Origin: a virus
Taxonomy: Duplodnaviria > Heunggongvirae > Uroviricota > Caudoviricetes
Length of the DNA stretch: 54,039 nucleotides
Strand: one strand, 5' to 3'
Virus record (IMG/VR): IMGVR_UViG_2541047747_000003
Every line of letters starts with the position of its first letter. Position 1 is the stretch's first letter. A program made the position numbers and the translations under genes. The notes below the pieces were generated by a model. It was not told the origin of the DNA. It did no database searches and saw only the letters and a list, made by a program, of their open reading frames with translations. Below are positions 38,090-45,292 of this stretch, piece after piece.

Positions 38090-38788
38090 ATGATCCATGT
38101 TCGTACAGGACAATTTGCTGCCGTGGTGAACGGTAAGCGCTATGAGTTTAATCCTTGCTTTGCTGCGATGGCTAAAATCGGCAACGATAGTGAGCTTGTC
38201 GAATATTTCGCACTTATCCACGGCGGCAAATATCCATCACGATTGCCAGCAGATCCAGACCTACGCAATCGCATTCTGGCGCGGTGTTATGGTGAAATAG
38301 TTCAGACATCAATGCACATCCTGAAATGTTGCTCAGACGACGAAATAGGCCCGTTATTGGGCGAATGCTGGTTTACTCCTTCGGGTAAGTTAAAGTTAAA
38401 GCCCGGATTAATGCCGATCGAGGATATCATCACGCTTGCGCAGCACTGCATGTACCACGGTCTTATTGGTGATGGCCCGGAAGAAGAGTCCGGGGAAATC
38501 CCGGAAGGGGAATATAAGCCGACTTTTAACGTCCTTGAATTCGTCTATTCTGCCGTTGCTCACCTGGGCTTGTCAGAATCGGAAGCATGGAATATGACAA
38601 TGACCGGATATAGGGCCGCTGTACGCGCTAAAACGCCGCCAGACGAAAGAAACGAGAAAAGCAAGCCAAACATTCACATAAATAAACGTGCTTATGACGA
38701 GCAAATGGAGGCCGCTAAAAAGGCACTAGAAAGAATGAAAAATCGTGAGCAAGAAAAGCCCGGTAGATCCGGGCGTTTTGCTAATTGA
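38090..38788 (+). CDS. Putative tail assembly chaperone
   Basis: Start chosen at MIHVRTGQF; positional call between tube and tape measure; no frameshift site identified. Confidence 0.45.
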   Translation: MIHVRTGQFAAVVNGKRYEFNPCFAAMAKIGNDSELVEYFALIHGGKYPSRLPADPDLRNRILARCYGEIVQTSMHILKCCSDDEIGPLLGECWFTPSGKLKLKPGLMPIEDIITLAQHCMYHGLIGDGPEEESGEIPEGEYKPTFNVLEFVYSAVAHLGLSESEAWNMTMTGYRAAVRAKTPPDERNEKSKPNIHINKRAYDEQMEAAKKALERMKNREQEKPGRSGRFAN

Positions 38789-39155
38789 AATCTTTAATTG
38801 CTGTACCTGGTGAACTGTGTGTGATTGTATTGTATACAGACTTTGCCTTACTGCGATCTTTCCATTCTTTTAGGATGCAGTTATCAAACTTTGCGATAAC
38901 CCTTGAAGGGGATAATTCTTCAACATCCATGTAAGTAAATCCTATCGTGCTGGTTACTGAATACCATACGTGATAACTATAATTACCGTCATGCTCGATT
39001 CTTTGTGGTTCCCCCATTATTTTATTCACTTGCTCACAAGTCATTCCAACTTGCAAATTTTTATCAGCTAACTTAACGAAATCAGTTGATCTTGCGCACC
39101 CTGTAAGAGCTAAAGCCATAACACCAATGAGAACCGCTTTGATTATTTTTTTCAT
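38781..39155 (-). CDS. Lipoprotein with BamE/SmpA-OmlA-like domain (accessory gene)
   Basis: Signal peptide plus lipobox LTGC; LQVGMTCEQVNKIMGEP resembles the BamE fold signature; AT-rich; opposite strand to the tail genes. Confidence 0.6.
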   Translation of the reverse strand: MKKIIKAVLIGVMALALTGCARSTDFVKLADKNLQVGMTCEQVNKIMGEPQRIEHDGNYSYHVWYSVTSTIGFTYMDVEELSPSRVIAKFDNCILKEWKDRSKAKSVYNTITHSSPGTAIKDFN

Positions 39156-39165
39156 GATTTACCCC

Positions 39166-39825
39166 TTAATTCCAGTTGCAAGCGTTTTTCACTTTGTCGA
39201 TGTGGTTATAAAGACCATCAATGTTAAACACTGCTTTCTCAATGTCGCCAGCTTCCGGCACTACTTCAATGATGAATTGTTTTTCGTTAACCAGTTTTTT
39301 AATCATTGGGATGGCTTTTTTGCCGTCCCATAATCCAAGAGCTTTATAATTAGTTGACCGCCACCACTCAGTAGCTACAGCTTTGTGAACGCCGATCCGG
39401 TAGTTAATATAAGTAGTGTCCCCGGCGTCAGTTACATGGTGTGACCATGCTACGAACATTTTTGTTTTATTACCCTGGCAAGCGATTGTTAATACCGGTT
39501 TATTCTTATCCTGTGCCTTCAGTGTCGGGAAAGCATCAAGACTTCCGCTGAATTGTTCTGCTTTCACAAAAAGGAATACGTTTTTTGCGTCCTGCATATC
39601 ATCTTTTCTTTCAACTACAAGCCACTGTTTACCAGCATTTTCTTTTTCTAACTGTGCATCGTATGCGGCTTGTTTTGCTTGTTGTTCTGCAAGCCATTTA
39701 GCATTTTTCTCTGCTAATGCTTGTTGCTCTTGATTGGTCACTATAGGCGCTTTTTCATTATCCTCATTGCAACCAACCAGACCCAATACCGCCGCAATCA
39801 TTGCCACTTTTGCTAACCGTTTCAT
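39166..39825 (-). CDS. Lipoprotein (accessory gene)
   Basis: 219 aa; signal peptide with lipobox LVGC; Gln/Ala-rich linker; opposite strand to the tail genes. Confidence 0.6.
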   Translation of the reverse strand: MKRLAKVAMIAAVLGLVGCNEDNEKAPIVTNQEQQALAEKNAKWLAEQQAKQAAYDAQLEKENAGKQWLVVERKDDMQDAKNVFLFVKAEQFSGSLDAFPTLKAQDKNKPVLTIACQGNKTKMFVAWSHHVTDAGDTTYINYRIGVHKAVATEWWRSTNYKALGLWDGKKAIPMIKKLVNEKQFIIEVVPEAGDIEKAVFNIDGLYNHIDKVKNACNWN

Positions 39826-39952: not shown

Positions 39953-42295
39953 ATGGCTACCAGTGTAGGTACAATTTATTACGAAGTTGATGCGAAAACT
40001 GGTCAACTTCTCGTTGCACAACGACAGGCAGACCAGGCCTTTGATCGTATAGAGCGCGGCGCAAAACAGGCTGACCGCCAGGTAAACACCCTGAAAACAT
40101 CCATCAAGGCACTGACCAGGGTTATCCATCTGCTAATTGCTGCGGAGGCTGTGCGCCAATTTATGGATATGGCGGAGCAAGCAAAAATGCTTCGCGTAAA
40201 AATCAAAATGCTTACGGGCGATGCGGAGTCCGCCGGACGGGTTTTCGACGGCCTGAAAGCAATATCCAGGGAGACGGGGCAGAGCCTGAAAGATACTGGC
40301 GAATTATGGCAAGGCCTGGCTATCTCACTAAAAAACACCTCCGCTACGGAAGGGCAATTGCTTAACCTGGTTGGCACTATTCAGAAAATGGGTGCATTAG
40401 GCGGCGCGTCAGCGGAACAGATGTCTAACTCAATGCGTCAATTCCGTCAGTCTATCGACGGCGGTGTTCTTCGTGCCGAAGAATTTAACAGCCTGCTTGA
40501 AAATACGCCGACCATCGTACAAACAATGGCCCGCCATATGGGATTATCAATGGGCCAGTTCCGCGCCGAAATGCTGGACGGCAAGATCACGGCTGAAAGG
40601 ATGGTTAACGCAATACAGGCGGCTACGCAGGAAACAAACGATAAGTTTGCTCAGTTGCCGCGCACATCCGGCATGGCTATCAATGAGCTTAAAGTAGAAA
40701 TTATGGGCCTTGTTGAGCAGTTGGATGATCTTTTTGGCGTGTCAGATGGCGTTGTTTCAGCTATCGACTTGATCACGAAAGGCGTTAAAGGGCTTGGCGA
40801 TGGCGCTAAATTCGCTAAAACCTGCTTCGACACACTCAAAACGGCTGGTAGCGAATTTATCGACATGTTTGATGATGTGGCTGTTAAGGCTGGAGAGGTG
40901 GCAGAGAAGATCATCGCAATGGTGACGCCAATCAAGGCGCTAATGGATGGCTATAAATGGATGAAGGAGGTAGTAGGAGAGCAAACCGACGAATATAACA
41001 GCAACTACGAGAAGAAATACGGGAAGACCGTTGGCAAGGTCATGCAACTACAGGATGATCTGACCGCAGCAATCCAGGCTACAGAAGAAGCAAGGAAAAA
41101 TGAACAGAATGCTGCCAATGACGGAGCGATTACCGGATTCGACAAGCCAGTAGACAAGCCGAAAAAACAGAAAAAAGAGAAGAAATCGGAAGCTGATCGG
41201 CTTGGTGACAAAGGTATAAGCGTTTCTGATCAGTACAACAAAGACGCCGCCGCCATGCGCAAAGCGTTGGAGAACGGCAAGGCCATTGATGCTGCATTTG
41301 CCCAGGGTAAAATCACGCTCCTTGAGTACCGCGCCGCGCAAAAAGGGATCGGCAAGGAACTGAAAGAAGAATTAGCACAAATTCCGGTAGATGAATTGCG
41401 TGATAAATGGTCACAAATAGTAAGCCCGATGGATCAGCTAAAAGGCGAAGTTGACCCCATCCAGCAGGCGCAAAATGAATGGGCCATCCGTAAGCAAATG
41501 CTTATAGACCTGGGCGCTACTGAAGCGCAACAGAAACAGGAATTGTTAGCCTATGAGCAACAGATCCGCGATCTGAAATGGGAACAATGGCAGGCGCAAA
41601 GCGACACAAACGGCCTTATCGGTGATTGTGTTAATGGCCTTAAAGGCGGAATGAGTAATGCGCTTGTTGGCCTGTTAAACGGCACTCAATCATTGAGTGA
41701 TGTTTTTGCTAACTTAGGAAGCAATATACTCGGCAATATCGGTAACAGACTCTCAGACATAGCTGCAAACTGGATAGCAGATCAGATCATGATGGAGACA
41801 CAAAGCAAGGCCACGCAAACAAGTACAACAGCAAGCGCGGTAGCAGCTCAGGGAAGCATTGCTGCGGCGGCGGCCCCAGCAGCGGCGGCAACTGCGGCGT
41901 CAACTGGCGGTAGCTGGGCGGCGGCTGGTTCGGCGGCGCTCACTGCGATCATGTCGCTGGCTACGTCAATTTTCGGCGGCGGTCGCTTTAATGGTGGTAG
42001 CGTCATTGGTGGTAATATGTACCGCGTAGGGGAACACAACAGGCCGGAGCTATTCCAGACATCTAACGGCAATCAATATATGATCCCTGGCGAGAACGGC
42101 AGAGTTATTCCGGGTCGTGATATTGGCGGCGGTGGCGGTATTAGTATGCCTGTCAGTATCAGCATTCAGACCACGAACGGATTCAGCGACGAAGACAGCC
42201 GCAGACTTGAATTAACAATGGAACGTGTAGCCATGAAAATGATAACAAGGGAATCTCAAAGACCAGGCGGAATGTTGCAACCTCGCCGCAAATAA
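39953..42295 (+). CDS. Tail tape measure protein
   Basis: 780 aa, largely alpha-helical and low-complexity, Gly-rich C-terminal region; canonical position. Confidence 0.85.
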   Translation: MATSVGTIYYEVDAKTGQLLVAQRQADQAFDRIERGAKQADRQVNTLKTSIKALTRVIHLLIAAEAVRQFMDMAEQAKMLRVKIKMLTGDAESAGRVFDGLKAISRETGQSLKDTGELWQGLAISLKNTSATEGQLLNLVGTIQKMGALGGASAEQMSNSMRQFRQSIDGGVLRAEEFNSLLENTPTIVQTMARHMGLSMGQFRAEMLDGKITAERMVNAIQAATQETNDKFAQLPRTSGMAINELKVEIMGLVEQLDDLFGVSDGVVSAIDLITKGVKGLGDGAKFAKTCFDTLKTAGSEFIDMFDDVAVKAGEVAEKIIAMVTPIKALMDGYKWMKEVVGEQTDEYNSNYEKKYGKTVGKVMQLQDDLTAAIQATEEARKNEQNAANDGAITGFDKPVDKPKKQKKEKKSEADRLGDKGISVSDQYNKDAAAMRKALENGKAIDAAFAQGKITLLEYRAAQKGIGKELKEELAQIPVDELRDKWSQIVSPMDQLKGEVDPIQQAQNEWAIRKQMLIDLGATEAQQKQELLAYEQQIRDLKWEQWQAQSDTNGLIGDCVNGLKGGMSNALVGLLNGTQSLSDVFANLGSNILGNIGNRLSDIAANWIADQIMMETQSKATQTSTTASAVAAQGSIAAAAAPAAAATAASTGGSWAAAGSAALTAIMSLATSIFGGGRFNGGSVIGGNMYRVGEHNRPELFQTSNGNQYMIPGENGRVIPGRDIGGGGGISMPVSISIQTTNGFSDEDSRRLELTMERVAMKMITRESQRPGGMLQPRRK

Positions 42296-42298
42296 ACT

Positions 42299-42327
42299 AA
42301 ACCCCGGTGCAATGCCGGGGTTATTTT
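42299..42327 (+). terminator. Rho-independent terminator after the tape measure gene
   Basis: CCCCGGTG-CAAT-GCCGGGG then TTATTTTT; near-identical to the terminator at 35713. Confidence 0.7.
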
Positions 42328-42381
42328 TCGTATTTATAAACGACCATTCCGCGCGATATATCCCCTTTCGAATATCTCGAC

Positions 42382-42636
42382 TCACTTATGAGTGCCTTTC
42401 ACGCCACATAACTTGTTATAGGCACGGTGCTCAACAATTAACCAAACCTTCAAATCTTCGCTAAACAGCCTCCAATCAAGATTGATATCCATTTTGTATC
42501 CGTAACCGTCGCGTAACTTTTTGGGGTAAACTTCTTTTCTCAGAAAGGCTTTAAGTAATTCCTTACCTTTCTTGATGATCCGGTCCTGTGCGTTTTTCTG
42601 TGCTTTCAGATTTCTGTCAATCGCTACCAGTTTCAT
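42382..42636 (-). CDS. Possible RelE/ParE-like toxin (84 aa), low confidence
   Basis: Small basic protein; C-terminal hydrophobic strand ending in HR (VWLIVEHR) resembles the RelE/ParE C-terminus; GGGGTGAG RBS; follows a 50-aa ORF. Confidence 0.35.
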   Translation of the reverse strand: MKLVAIDRNLKAQKNAQDRIIKKGKELLKAFLRKEVYPKKLRDGYGYKMDINLDWRLFSEDLKVWLIVEHRAYNKLCGVKGTHK

Positions 42637-42659
42637 AACTCACCCCATCATCCTTAGTT

Positions 42660-42812
42660 AAGTGCCTTCAGGAAGAAGTCCCGGTATTCATCTTCTTTCG
42701 CATTCATCATGAATTGACCGTATTTGAATGCGTCGTCGAAACCCTTAACGATTGCTATTTCCACTTGTTCGAATGCGTTATTTAGCATTACTACTACATA
42801 GCGTTTCATTTT
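42660..42812 (-). CDS. Hypothetical small protein (50 aa), possible antitoxin partner
   Basis: Hand-translated MKRYVVVMLNNAFEQVEIAIVKGFDDAFKYGQFMMNAKEDEYRDFFLKALN; upstream of and close to the 84-aa ORF. Confidence 0.3.
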
Positions 42813-42976
42813 GGGCCTCCTTCGTTGGTACTACTTTCTTCTTGCTTTCTATATACATCTTGTTGCGTGCTATGTGAAGCCATTTTGTAAACTAGCTATA
42901 ATCATTGTGACAATGATCTTATTTTTCGCGTAGAAGCGCGTAAAGATATATACAAAATGTAACTTGTGGGGGTTTT

Positions 42977-43330
42977 ATGCCGGAAGTGTTCAGATGGACG
43001 CCGCAAAGAAGCTACAGCGTGACCAGGAAGCCAGACGTATCTGTTGTTAAGCTGGGCGATGGTTATGAGCAAAGACAGGTAAAAGGTATCAATCCATTGC
43101 TTGATAGCTACACCCTGGTGTTTAAAGGCAGTAGCGCCGGATGTGGTGATGGTGGAAACGTAGCAATCCAGGCGGAAGCATTCTTGAGGGCGCGCGGCGC
43201 GGTCGAGGCTTTTTACTGGTCGCCGTCAATGGATAACGTGCAAAGGCTTTTTGTCTGTCGGCAATGGAGCATGACTAAAGACGGGCCTTTGTACACGCTA
43301 AACGCAACGTTTGAGCAAGTTGTTGGCTAA
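42977..43330 (+). CDS. Minor tail protein (lambda M-like)
   Basis: 117 aa; first gene after the tape measure, conserved lambda tail-tip gene order. Confidence 0.65.
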   Translation: MPEVFRWTPQRSYSVTRKPDVSVVKLGDGYEQRQVKGINPLLDSYTLVFKGSSAGCGDGGNVAIQAEAFLRARGAVEAFYWSPSMDNVQRLFVCRQWSMTKDGPLYTLNATFEQVVG

Positions 43331-43527
43331 TGGGGGTTGTTATGTACGGGACTTGTGTAGTTGACAAAACTTACGCTTTTACATTGTTTGACGACTATGA
43401 GATCAACGACCTTACTGTAAAAGCTGACAACGGCGATATATGGTATCTTCACGACGTTGGTGATGGGTACGTTGGGTGTAGATCCCGGGAAGGGAAGGAG
43501 GTTTTATTTTTGGTTGATGGCGTATAA
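43330..43527 (+). CDS. Hypothetical small protein
   Basis: 65-aa ORF followed by a terminator. Confidence 0.35.
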   Translation: MGVVMYGTCVVDKTYAFTLFDDYEINDLTVKADNGDIWYLHDVGDGYVGCRSREGKEVLFLVDGV

Positions 43528-43533
43528 ACACGA

Positions 43534-43561
43534 CCCCGCGCGAAGCGGGGTTATTTTTATT
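43534..43561 (+). terminator. Rho-independent terminator
   Basis: CCCCGCG-CGAA-GCGGGG followed by TTATTTTTATT. Confidence 0.6.
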
Positions 43562-43683
43562 CTATTTCCATTAATGCTATATTTTCTGCTATCGTTTTCC
43601 AGTCCAGATCTACAGCATGAACGCCAAATACTATCAACCCCATTATTATTAGCGCCAAAACTTTTATTTTTATAATTAGTCAC

Positions 43684-43932
43684 CTATAAGTTATCACGCA
43701 GATAATTAACGCCCTTATCAGTGACGAATGAATGGTTAACCTGGTTTTCATCCGTCATGATGATGAATAACTTTTCATGTAGGTATTTCGCTTTCGGGTA
43801 CAGCGTTAAACAGACCTGGTACAGTATCCCGCGCTCAATCAGCAAATCAATAAATTCGTGTTCATGATAACCGATGAGGCGGGCGGCCTGTTTCAACGTG
43901 TACACATAATCACCGTGATTGCGCCGCCCCAT
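43684..43932 (-). CDS. Hypothetical protein (accessory gene, minus strand)
   Basis: 82-aa ORF last in a three-gene minus-strand cassette. Confidence 0.45.
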   Translation of the reverse strand: MGRRNHGDYVYTLKQAARLIGYHEHEFIDLLIERGILYQVCLTLYPKAKYLHEKLFIIMTDENQVNHSFVTDKGVNYLRDNL

Positions 43933-43941
43933 GTTGCCGCC

Positions 43942-44289
43942 TTATTTATCGAATGCTGAAAGGTTATCGATACAGAAATCTTTCGCCGCTTTTTCGTATT
44001 CGCGTTTTGCTTCTGGATCGTCAGCCGGGAAACCTTTTGCGTGTATTTCACCAGGGCAAGACTGGTCCATAGAATCTGCATAATAAGCAGTGAAGCTACC
44101 ATTAATATCTTTCGGGTTCATATCTTCCACCTCATCAACTATCTGTACCGGATTAGCAGCATATTTCACTGGATGGCCTAAACTACATTCAAGAATCCTG
44201 CCTTCTTCCAGGGCTACTTCTTCGCTATCAAATAATCCGAAACACTCCTTGCTACCACTTAACCACACATCAAGACTGTATTTTTTCAT
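43942..44289 (-). CDS. Hypothetical protein (accessory gene, minus strand)
   Basis: Start chosen at MKKYSLDVWL with a GAGG RBS. Confidence 0.4.
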   Translation of the reverse strand: MKKYSLDVWLSGSKECFGLFDSEEVALEEGRILECSLGHPVKYAANPVQIVDEVEDMNPKDINGSFTAYYADSMDQSCPGEIHAKGFPADDPEAKREYEKAAKDFCIDNLSAFDK

Positions 44290-44458
44290 TTTTGTTAGCC
44301 TCATATTTGACAGGTTCGATCTGGTATCCCAAAAGGCGGTCATCCTCAGCAAGTAAAAGCGCGTCAACCAATGCTTCACCCTCGTCGTCATACAGGGCGA
44401 TAACCTTTTCCCTACCGTCTGTCATGAATACCGTCAACTTCCATAGCTTTTCAGTCAT
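44270..44458 (-). CDS. Hypothetical acidic protein (accessory gene, minus strand)
   Basis: Start chosen at MTEKLWKL with a GGAGGTG RBS; dispersed-motif copy immediately upstream. Confidence 0.45.
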   Translation of the reverse strand: MTEKLWKLTVFMTDGREKVIALYDDEGEALVDALLLAEDDRLLGYQIEPVKYEANKNEKIQS

Positions 44459-44587
44459 AACGCACCTCCGCGCCATTTTGTTAACTATGCTTCCGTTTGA
44501 GTAAAATATACATATTGTAAAAACCGCGATCAATCCATTTTGGTATGATTTAGCGTGACGCAGATCACAGAATGACAAGGTGAGAAA

Positions 44588-45292
44588 ATGCGCAATATTC
44601 CGAGAGAAATGATTATTGATTCCGTCGATGCCGGAGTCGGCGCGGTAATTGACTTGTTTGAATTAGACCTCACGCCCCTGGGTGGCGAGGTTATCCGCTT
44701 CCATTCCGGCGTGAATGGCTATTACGGCCCGGTTATCTGGAAGGGGGTGGCTTACAACAGCTACCCTATCGAGGCCACTGGCTTCGAAATGAAAAACGAG
44801 GGTGTCTATTCACGCCCGCAAATGGTTGTAGCCAACATTGGCGGCCTAATCACCGGGATGAATAACGATTTCAACGACCTGCGAGGAATGAAAGTTACAC
44901 GCCGCCAGGTGGAAGTAAAATACCTGGACGCCATCAACTTCCCCAACGGCAACCCGGATGCAGATCCGTCTATCGAGGCGGTGTCTTTTTACGTCGTTGA
45001 GGCGATGAGCGAAGAAACAGCCGACCAGGTGCAATATGAGCTGTCAACGCCAATTGATGCTGACAAGGCGGTTATCCCAGGGCGCACAATCCTTGCTGAC
45101 GTTTGCCAATGGCAATATCGCGGCGACGGTTGCGGATACAGTGGCGGCCCTGTAGCTACTGATAAAGACGAATCGACCAGCGATCCAAAGCTGGATAAAT
45201 GCAGCCACCGCCTGAGCGGTTGCCGTTTACGTTTCCCGCGCCCGAATCCGTTACCAATTTCATGTTTCCCAGGATCGAGCAAGGTGGGTTGA
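44588..45292 (+). CDS. Minor tail protein L
   Basis: 234 aa with lambda gpL-like size and position, C-terminal cysteine cluster (CQW...CGY...C..C). Confidence 0.75.
   Translation: MRNIPREMIIDSVDAGVGAVIDLFELDLTPLGGEVIRFHSGVNGYYGPVIWKGVAYNSYPIEATGFEMKNEGVYSRPQMVVANIGGLITGMNNDFNDLRGMKVTRRQVEVKYLDAINFPNGNPDADPSIEAVSFYVVEAMSEETADQVQYELSTPIDADKAVIPGRTILADVCQWQYRGDGCGYSGGPVATDKDESTSDPKLDKCSHRLSGCRLRFPRPNPLPISCFPGSSKVG

Follow-up and report, generated by a model that had tools for sequence, protein, structure and literature searches.

The RelE/ParE fold is borne by toxins of type II toxin-antitoxin (TA) systems, among them YoeB, in which the C-terminal His-Tyr pair is functional. Prophages are among the carriers of such systems, and some carry ParE modules whose small antitoxin has no DNA-binding domain, as in PaaA2-ParE2. 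The same fold also occurs in T4 RegB, a phage RNase of the RelE/YoeB type that has no known antitoxin and is used by the phage itself (PMC3014915).

Here we describe a small reverse-strand cassette that looks at first sight like a TA module. The window, the whole stretch of 54,039 nucleotides analyzed here, is a mEp021-like temperate coliphage genome of about 54 kb. The DNA around the cassette matches phages mEp554, mEp021, mEp010, mEp044, mEp013, mEp515, and MagusPhagus, which constitute the “mEpimmI” group (PMC11893012); the two cassette genes, which we call p51 and p84, are not discussed in the paper on those genomes. A sequence-only reading of the window had suggested that the two genes might form a toxin-antitoxin pair. 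What we add is that the mEpimmI phages carry the pair as a conserved operon and that the antitoxin assignment, judged from sequence, appears to fail two defining tests: that the partner have a recognized antitoxin or DNA-binding fold (RHH, Phd/YefM, HTH, or AbrB) or a disordered tail that wraps the toxin, and that the toxin gene be inherited only together with its partner.

Results

Layout of the cassette

The two-gene, minus-strand pair opposing the tail operon was found where it had been placed by the sequence-only reading (Table 1). Both genes lie on the same strand, with p51 upstream of p84 and a spacer of 17 nt between them. The second gene has the 84 codons ascribed to it and its product is basic, as claimed (pI 10.0, against an acidic pI of 5.1 for p51), but the first encodes 51 residues rather than 50. 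The motif VWLIVEHR, previously taken for the end of the larger protein, corresponds to residues 64–71 of p84 and is followed by 13 further residues (AYNKLCGVKGTHK).

Table 1. Positions of the cassette, its neighbors, and its signals in the window
Feature	Position	Strand	Description
Bidirectional intrinsic terminator	42300–42322	both	Stem of 8–10 pairs, 6 G-C pairs, T-rich tail on each strand
Tape-measure gene	39953–42295	+	One neighbor of the cassette
p84 (second gene)	42382–42636, including stop	−	ORF; 84-aa basic protein, Pfam ParE_like (PF24732), RelE/ParE-superfamily fold
Shine-Dalgarno-like GGGGTGAG of p84	42639–42646	−	Within the 17-nt spacer, 2 nt before the p84 ATG
p51 (first gene)	42654–42809, including stop	−	ORF; 51-aa acidic protein, PHROG 29810
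Shine-Dalgarno AAGGAGG of p51	42816–42822	−	Sequence reading; 6 nt before the p51 ATG
Inferred sigma-70-type promoter	42850–42878	−	TTCACA (42878–42873), 17 nt, TATATA (42855–42850)
10-nt perfect inverted repeat, CCATTTTGTA / ATACAAAATG	42880–42889 / 42950–42959		Directly upstream of the inferred promoter
Minor tail gene	42977–43330	+	Other neighbor of the cassette; Pfam Phage_min_tail
Second bidirectional terminator	43532–43552		End of the third reverse cassette

The G+C content of the cassette is 40%, compared with 50–51% in the flanking tape-measure and minor-tail genes. By composition, orientation, terminator, and inferred promoter, the cassette resembles a moron-type operon. Its earlier description as clearly an accessory insertion is only partly apt. 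Composition and orientation are indeed moron-like, but among the 51 related loci that we gathered (four GenBank phages and 47 IMG/VR contigs), p84 is present in all 51 and the pair in 49. In relatives, variable extra genes lie between p84 and the terminator (L001 1584–2918; L003 1170–2328; L002 1999–2286; L004 2079–2505). mEp021 has a zinc-ribbon protein here and mEp515 has an HNH endonuclease, and several ORFs of 30–60 aa also occur; the window is the minimal form, with zero extra genes at this place. Within this insertion hotspot, p51 and p84 are the part that stays constant, next to the promoter.

Regulatory DNA

The Shine-Dalgarno sequence of p51, kept as AAGG(A/G)GG in most relatives in our upstream alignment, is stronger than that of p84. 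Farther upstream, the hexamers TTCACA and TATA(T/C)A are kept 17 nt apart in 44 distinct upstream sequences while the sequence of the spacer between them varies, and both hexamers and spacing are also kept in genomes that have no p51. A consensus promoter scan did not call TTCACA-17-TATATA because position 6 of the −10 element is not T; the conserved hexamers are probably a weak sigma-70-type promoter of the cassette, from which p51 and p84 would be co-transcribed. At the other end, the tape-measure terminator that had been proposed to bracket the cassette was recovered as a G+C-rich hairpin. This hairpin has T-runs on both strands and thus can terminate both the tape-measure gene on the plus strand and the cassette on the minus strand.

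The claim that the regulatory region is rich in repeated motifs did not survive inspection, which yielded only one 10-nt inverted repeat and one unconserved 15-nt palindrome. The inverted repeat, which lies in the divergent region separating the cassette from the minor tail gene, is well conserved in the subgroup of the window and degraded in the mEp021 subgroup. We estimate the chance expectation of such a repeat in 170 nt at roughly 0.01–0.05, and it could be a candidate binding site for a regulator. The palindrome TCATTGTCACAATGA (42902–42916) is confined to the subgroup of the window and was rejected as an operator on account of its lack of conservation among relatives. Alignment of the 44 distinct upstream regions brought out no convincing candidate for an autoregulatory operator. 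An Rfam search of 41800–45000 returned just a sub-threshold chance match to a snoRNA, so no RNA antitoxin is evident.

Both open reading frames are genes

Among related phages, the median pairwise dN/dS is 0.047 for p51 (28 distinct DNA alleles) and 0.072 for p84 (37 distinct DNA alleles). Thus, p51 and p84 are real genes under strong purifying selection. That both are short, and that one has no family beyond a PHROG, would also fit chance open frames in an intergenic spacer. The probability of this explanation is negligible: it is already refuted by the selection analysis, with dN/dS at 0.05 and 0.07 across dozens of alleles, and good ribosome-binding sites, a Pfam match, and a confident fold for p84 speak against it as well.

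Family and fold of p84

The suspected RelE/ParE-type fold of p84 was borne out by both profile search and structure prediction. p84 matches Pfam PF24732 (ParE_like, “ParE-like toxin domain”) over model positions 2–67 of 67, with an E-value of 2.2e-11 and 44 bits against a gathering threshold of 24.4 bits, and the same family is matched by 11 of 11 diverse p84 relatives. p84 also matches PHROG 1525, a group without assigned function, and near-identical proteins of E. coli prophages bear the RefSeq name “ParE family toxin-like protein.” The fold assignment is therefore already catalogued in Pfam and RefSeq. The cassette itself is present in 32 of 5426 complete E. coli genomes, and truncated or frameshifted p84 copies of 47–61 aa occur in some E. 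coli chromosomes (P0033–P0040, P0099; contigs of up to 4.9 Mb), from which it follows that the gene decays in some prophages.

An AlphaFold2 model of p84 built with 27 sequences (pLDDT 88.5, pTM 0.77) has the order beta-beta-alpha-beta-beta-beta-alpha and the RelE/ParE-type alpha/beta fold, in which a helix packs on a small antiparallel sheet. It matches only toxins of the RelE/ParE superfamily (HigB, YafQ, RelE, YoeB, and ParE2), with modest scores. YoeB takes the top rank in Foldseek (probability 0.98, TM 0.5, 24–25% identity), and zero PDB matches were returned at E ≤ 0.001. In a viral structure library, strong matches (TM 0.72–0.85) are limited to “ParE-like toxin domain” proteins from Klebsiella phage RaK2 and Yersinia phage fHe-Yen9-04. 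Searching PDB sequences with p84 and with its profile gave nothing meaningful, PADLOC and NCBIfam gave no match for p84 or p51, and ParE_toxin (PF05016) was not matched even at E ≤ 10. Our literature search found no papers on PF24732 or “ParE family toxin-like” proteins. Direct sequence homology to YoeB or RelE was considered and rejected: only a helix segment of 11–15 residues aligns (hhalign E 0.031, probability 1.6%; BLASTP E 0.036), and the z-scores of global alignments against shuffles are 1.8 for YoeB, whose query sequence was checked to be identical to PDB 2a6q_E, and 0.25 for RelE.

Across p84 homologs of 28–54% identity, R56 and H70 are invariant, and K40, L57, D61, W65, and N74 are nearly so, the position of N74 being Asn or Asp. 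Position 73 is aromatic throughout, with Tyr in most homologs and Phe in a few. In the model, R56 lies in the central strand, and H70, the aromatic residue 73, and N74 come directly after the last strand. An invariant Arg and an invariant His in homologs below 35% identity suggest a conserved active or binding site. The C-terminal tail (residues 77–84; window 42382–42408) usually reads C-G-V-(K/R/Q)-G-x-H-K, and no 84-aa allele departs from G78, V79, G81, H83, or K84. Its GV-KG-HK part is kept in an 88-aa homolog of 51% identity, and the 72-aa members of the family have no such tail. Residues 81–84 are predicted to be disordered (pLDDT below 50); this conserved, disordered His-Lys end may be functional, like the C-terminal His-Tyr of YoeB.

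The first gene and its link to p84

p51 matches phrog_29810 (E 9e-40). It has no match in Pfam, NCBIfam, or PADLOC, nor in PDB sequences searched with the p51 profile. Its close homologs form 57 clusters that are 75–100% identical, and those with a named source come from E. coli or phage; p51 is thus restricted to mEp021-like phages. AlphaFold2 renders it as a single helix of 49 residues, but the five models are unstable (pLDDT 50–84; pTM 0.43). p51 was also compared with the small proteins that open a further reverse cassette (43942–44578; mEp021_74). The secondary-structure patterns are similar by eye, and a paralogous relationship was rejected on hhalign E-values of 0.3–0.5.

p84 is found in 51 of 51 related genomes and contigs, with p51 directly upstream in 49, and p51 was never seen without p84 (44 of 44 p51-carrying IMG/VR contigs have it). 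In the two exceptional contigs (L019 and L020), p51 is cleanly absent, and the conserved upstream region passes through a new Shine-Dalgarno sequence to the start of p84. E. coli UMNK88 has this junction at 100% identity in its complete chromosome, and the 255-nt p84 coding sequence there is intact. The p84 alleles without p51 (L019, L020, and UMNK88) differ from the p51-linked ones only at positions that are generally variable. Moreover, one and the same p51 protein occurs next to p84 alleles of 100, 93, 82, 67, and 65% identity, which indicates that the two genes recombine independently. The view that the upstream gene is an antitoxin is thus not supported: an intact p84 exists without p51 in a viable lysogen, UMNK88, and in two phage contigs; searches of Pfam, NCBIfam, PADLOC, and PDB sequences gave p51 no antitoxin-family or DNA-binding signature; and more distant family members have no such partner in the contexts read. 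A lack of co-occurrence in other genomes had been named as grounds for refutation. It is seen outside the mEpimmI lineage and in two of 51 loci inside it, the other 49 having the pair. Even the high count may reflect descent only, since it comes from one lineage with conserved synteny.

The wider PF24732 family

When 1.8 billion representative proteins were searched exhaustively with a profile, only 10 p84 relatives came up at E ≤ 0.001, and a scan of one genome per species found none. A word-indexed profile search gave 83 proteins, which carry PF24732 except for a few truncated copies from E. coli; their sources, where named, are E. coli, Serratia, Citrobacter, Mixta, a Yersinia phage, and one partial “Clostridium perfringens” record. 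Homologs of 72–88 aa from Serratia, Citrobacter, and Mixta prophages and from Yersinia phage fHe-Yen8-01 are embedded in long arrays of phage genes on the same strand.

The upstream neighbors of these distant homologs differ, and they often overlap the ParE_like gene by 4–14 nt. P2-like prophages have an Rv2179c-like exonuclease and a Toprim primase as the neighbors; elsewhere, unknown proteins of 114–128 aa lie upstream. In several unrelated prophages (L052–L055 1671–2701; L103, L111), the ParE_like gene starts 4–14 nt inside the end of a gene for a ParB-like (HTH_ParB) protein of 271 aa or about 441 aa. This overlap suggests that the gene is translationally coupled to that of a DNA-binding or partition-type protein. 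In one of these prophages (L055), a C5 DNA methyltransferase-like gene follows the ParE_like gene. No conserved small partner was seen in the contexts read (Serratia, Citrobacter, and Mixta prophages and fHe-Yen8-01), and the p51 profile matched none of 2347 ORFs flanking the distant homologs. RaK2 and fHe-Yen9-04 are large virulent phages, in which an addiction-type module would have no obvious role. On this distribution, PF24732 appears to behave as a phage effector family rather than as a TA family.

Other reverse cassettes of the tail region

Three opposite-strand units are present in this region, so the tail operon is interrupted three times. Just upstream of the tape-measure gene, a reverse cassette (38781–39825, minus strand) encodes two predicted lipoproteins, with lipobox-like LVGC and LTGC sequences after hydrophobic N-termini. 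The 219-aa protein matches Pfam VasI (type VI secretion-associated; E 1.2e-15), and the 124-aa protein has just sub-threshold matches to DUF7738 and BamE. This cassette may be a lysogenic-conversion or immunity-type moron. The third reverse cassette (43532–44578), between the minor tail gene cluster and a homolog of tail gene L, encodes three proteins: one of roughly 62 aa, one of 115 aa (phrog_38567), and one of 82 aa that matches a KilAC antirepressor domain (Pfam ANT, E 1.1e-6).

Discussion

Our preferred explanation, to which we would give about an even chance, is that the cassette is a moron operon encoding a stand-alone effector of RelE/ParE fold, p84, together with a dispensable, lineage-specific partner, p51. 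Transcription of the cassette would run opposite to the tail operon, from a weak sigma-70-type promoter of its own to the bidirectional terminator that it has in common with the tape-measure gene. p84 would then act alone on the nucleic-acid machinery of the host. Our guess at its activity is ribosome-associated mRNA cleavage, as by YoeB, RelE, or T4 RegB, with gyrase poisoning, as by ParE, as the alternative; we favor the former because YoeB is the closest solved fold and because R56 and H70 (with Y73 and N74) are conserved. p51 may modulate or bind p84 without being an obligatory antitoxin. The existence of both genes, the selection on them, the fold family of p84, and its distribution and gene contexts are direct results, whereas the promoter, any toxicity or molecular target of p84, and any contact between p51 and p84 are inferred. 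The explanation is supported by the PF24732 match and the fold, by p84 genes without p51, by a wider family without the partner, by the looseness of the pairing, and by the precedent of RegB. Against it stand the type II TA look of the anatomy, the co-occurrence in 49 of 51 loci, and the fact that p51 is never found alone. In addition, the similarity to YoeB and RelE is not significant, with no Foldseek match in the PDB at E ≤ 0.001, and the conserved Arg, His, and Tyr of p84 could be structural rather than catalytic. Survival of the p51-less prophage could also simply reflect silence of the cassette in lysogens.

Two other explanations use much of the same evidence. The pair could be a classical type II TA system, in which p51 is a new, minimal antitoxin that neutralizes p84 in the service of prophage maintenance or abortive-infection defense. 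Gene order, sizes, opposite charges, the 17-nt spacer, and the stronger Shine-Dalgarno sequence on the first gene all point this way, as do the toxin-type fold of p84, the own terminator and low GC, and the 49 of 51 co-occurrences with p51 never alone. PaaA2-ParE2 offers a precedent, and the ParE2 structure is among the fold matches of p84. We nevertheless consider a TA system unlikely, although it would fit if the cassette were silent in lysogens or p84 only mildly toxic. p84 is intact without p51 in UMNK88, L019, and L020, where the promoter is kept and the ribosome-binding site is good; p51 has no antitoxin-family, DNA-binding, or PADLOC match, and its models show a single helix (pLDDT 50 to 84 over the five). 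The alleles of the two genes are freely recombined, and the co-occurrences all come from one phage lineage and may be descent only. Finally, the wider family has no such partner, and its fold also occurs in RaK2 and fHe-Yen9-04.

Alternatively, p84 could have kept a toxin fold without toxic activity and have taken on another role, for example in regulation, as a decoy that binds ribosomes or antitoxins to counter host defense toxins, or as an accessory of DNA metabolism, with p51 being an unrelated small moron protein. This would agree with the tolerance of p84 alone in a lysogen, with the family's place among replication- and partition-type genes (ParB-like, primase, and exonuclease) in other phages, and with the lack of a significant sequence match to catalytically characterized toxins. 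We think it unlikely in view of the strong purifying selection on p84 and of an Arg and a His that remain invariant across homologs below 35% identity. The truncated p84 copies (P0039 and P0099) are also expected from decay of a costly gene.

The stand-alone effector that we prefer invites a broader conjecture, which we regard as somewhat unlikely but worth stating: PF24732 may be a class of antitoxin-independent effectors of RelE/ParE fold that enterobacterial phages direct at the host, either to cleave mRNA on the ribosome or to control gyrase, and one of which the mEp021-like phages moved into a prophage-expressed moron with p51 as a new, tuning partner. If true, the cassette would show a TA or defense module beginning to arise from a phage effector. 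An active p84 would provide another case, besides T4 RegB, in which phages turn RelE/ParE-fold proteins to their own use, and it would give a function to a Pfam family named by fold alone. More practically, the prophage layout of a small acidic gene followed by a small toxin-fold gene is insufficient for a TA call, because here the toxin-fold gene is kept intact without its partner and the wider family has no conserved partner in the contexts read. We advise annotation as “ParE-like domain protein plus hypothetical protein” rather than as “toxin-antitoxin.”

It is useful to contrast the cassette with the systems that it most resembles. With type II TA modules it shares the anatomy: an acidic gene first and a basic, toxin-fold gene second, a 17-nt spacer, a stronger first ribosome-binding site, and its own terminator. 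It departs from the RelE-type systems in that p84 occurs without the upstream gene. p84 has no significant sequence similarity to the toxins of YefM-YoeB, RelBE, DinJ-YafQ, or HigBA, which are ribosome-dependent mRNA endonucleases, and its model has one long helix in place of the helical hairpin usual in RelE-type toxins. p51, by Pfam and NCBIfam, is not a relative of the YefM/Phd, RelB, or DinJ antitoxins. The Arg and the His/aromatic/Asn cluster of p84 occupy places topologically similar to those of Arg65 and His83/Tyr84 in YoeB; RelE/YoeB-type RNases have a catalytic set of basic, His, Tyr, and Glu residues on the sheet face (E46, R65, H83, and Y84 in YoeB), and any equivalence of p84 residues to it would be one of topology, the alignments to YoeB and RelE not being significant. 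As for PaaA2-ParE2 and ParDE, whose ParE toxins inhibit DNA gyrase and need a C-terminal region for toxicity, ParE structures score below the RelE/YoeB group against the p84 model, and the cassette has no regulator gene such as PaaR2.

The phage side of the comparison is closer. p84 is a member of PF24732 with no difference in kind, its mEpimmI subgroup being distinguished from the 72-aa members by an extra N-terminal beta-hairpin and the C-terminal tail. The use of RegB by T4 for itself parallels the embedding of the PF24732 family in phage early-gene arrays. RegB has no sequence or profile link to p84 and is absent from its fold matches, and in the virulent phage T4 it is an early gene, whereas p84 belongs to a reverse-strand, tail-region cassette of a temperate phage. 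With phage morons, which are promoter-gene-terminator units standing independently in late operons, the cassette shares a reverse orientation, lower GC, its own terminator, a probable promoter of its own, and a position between two tail genes, and the variable genes downstream of p84 in relatives fit an insertion hotspot. Whereas morons are sporadic, however, the p51-p84 pair is nearly universal in its phage group.
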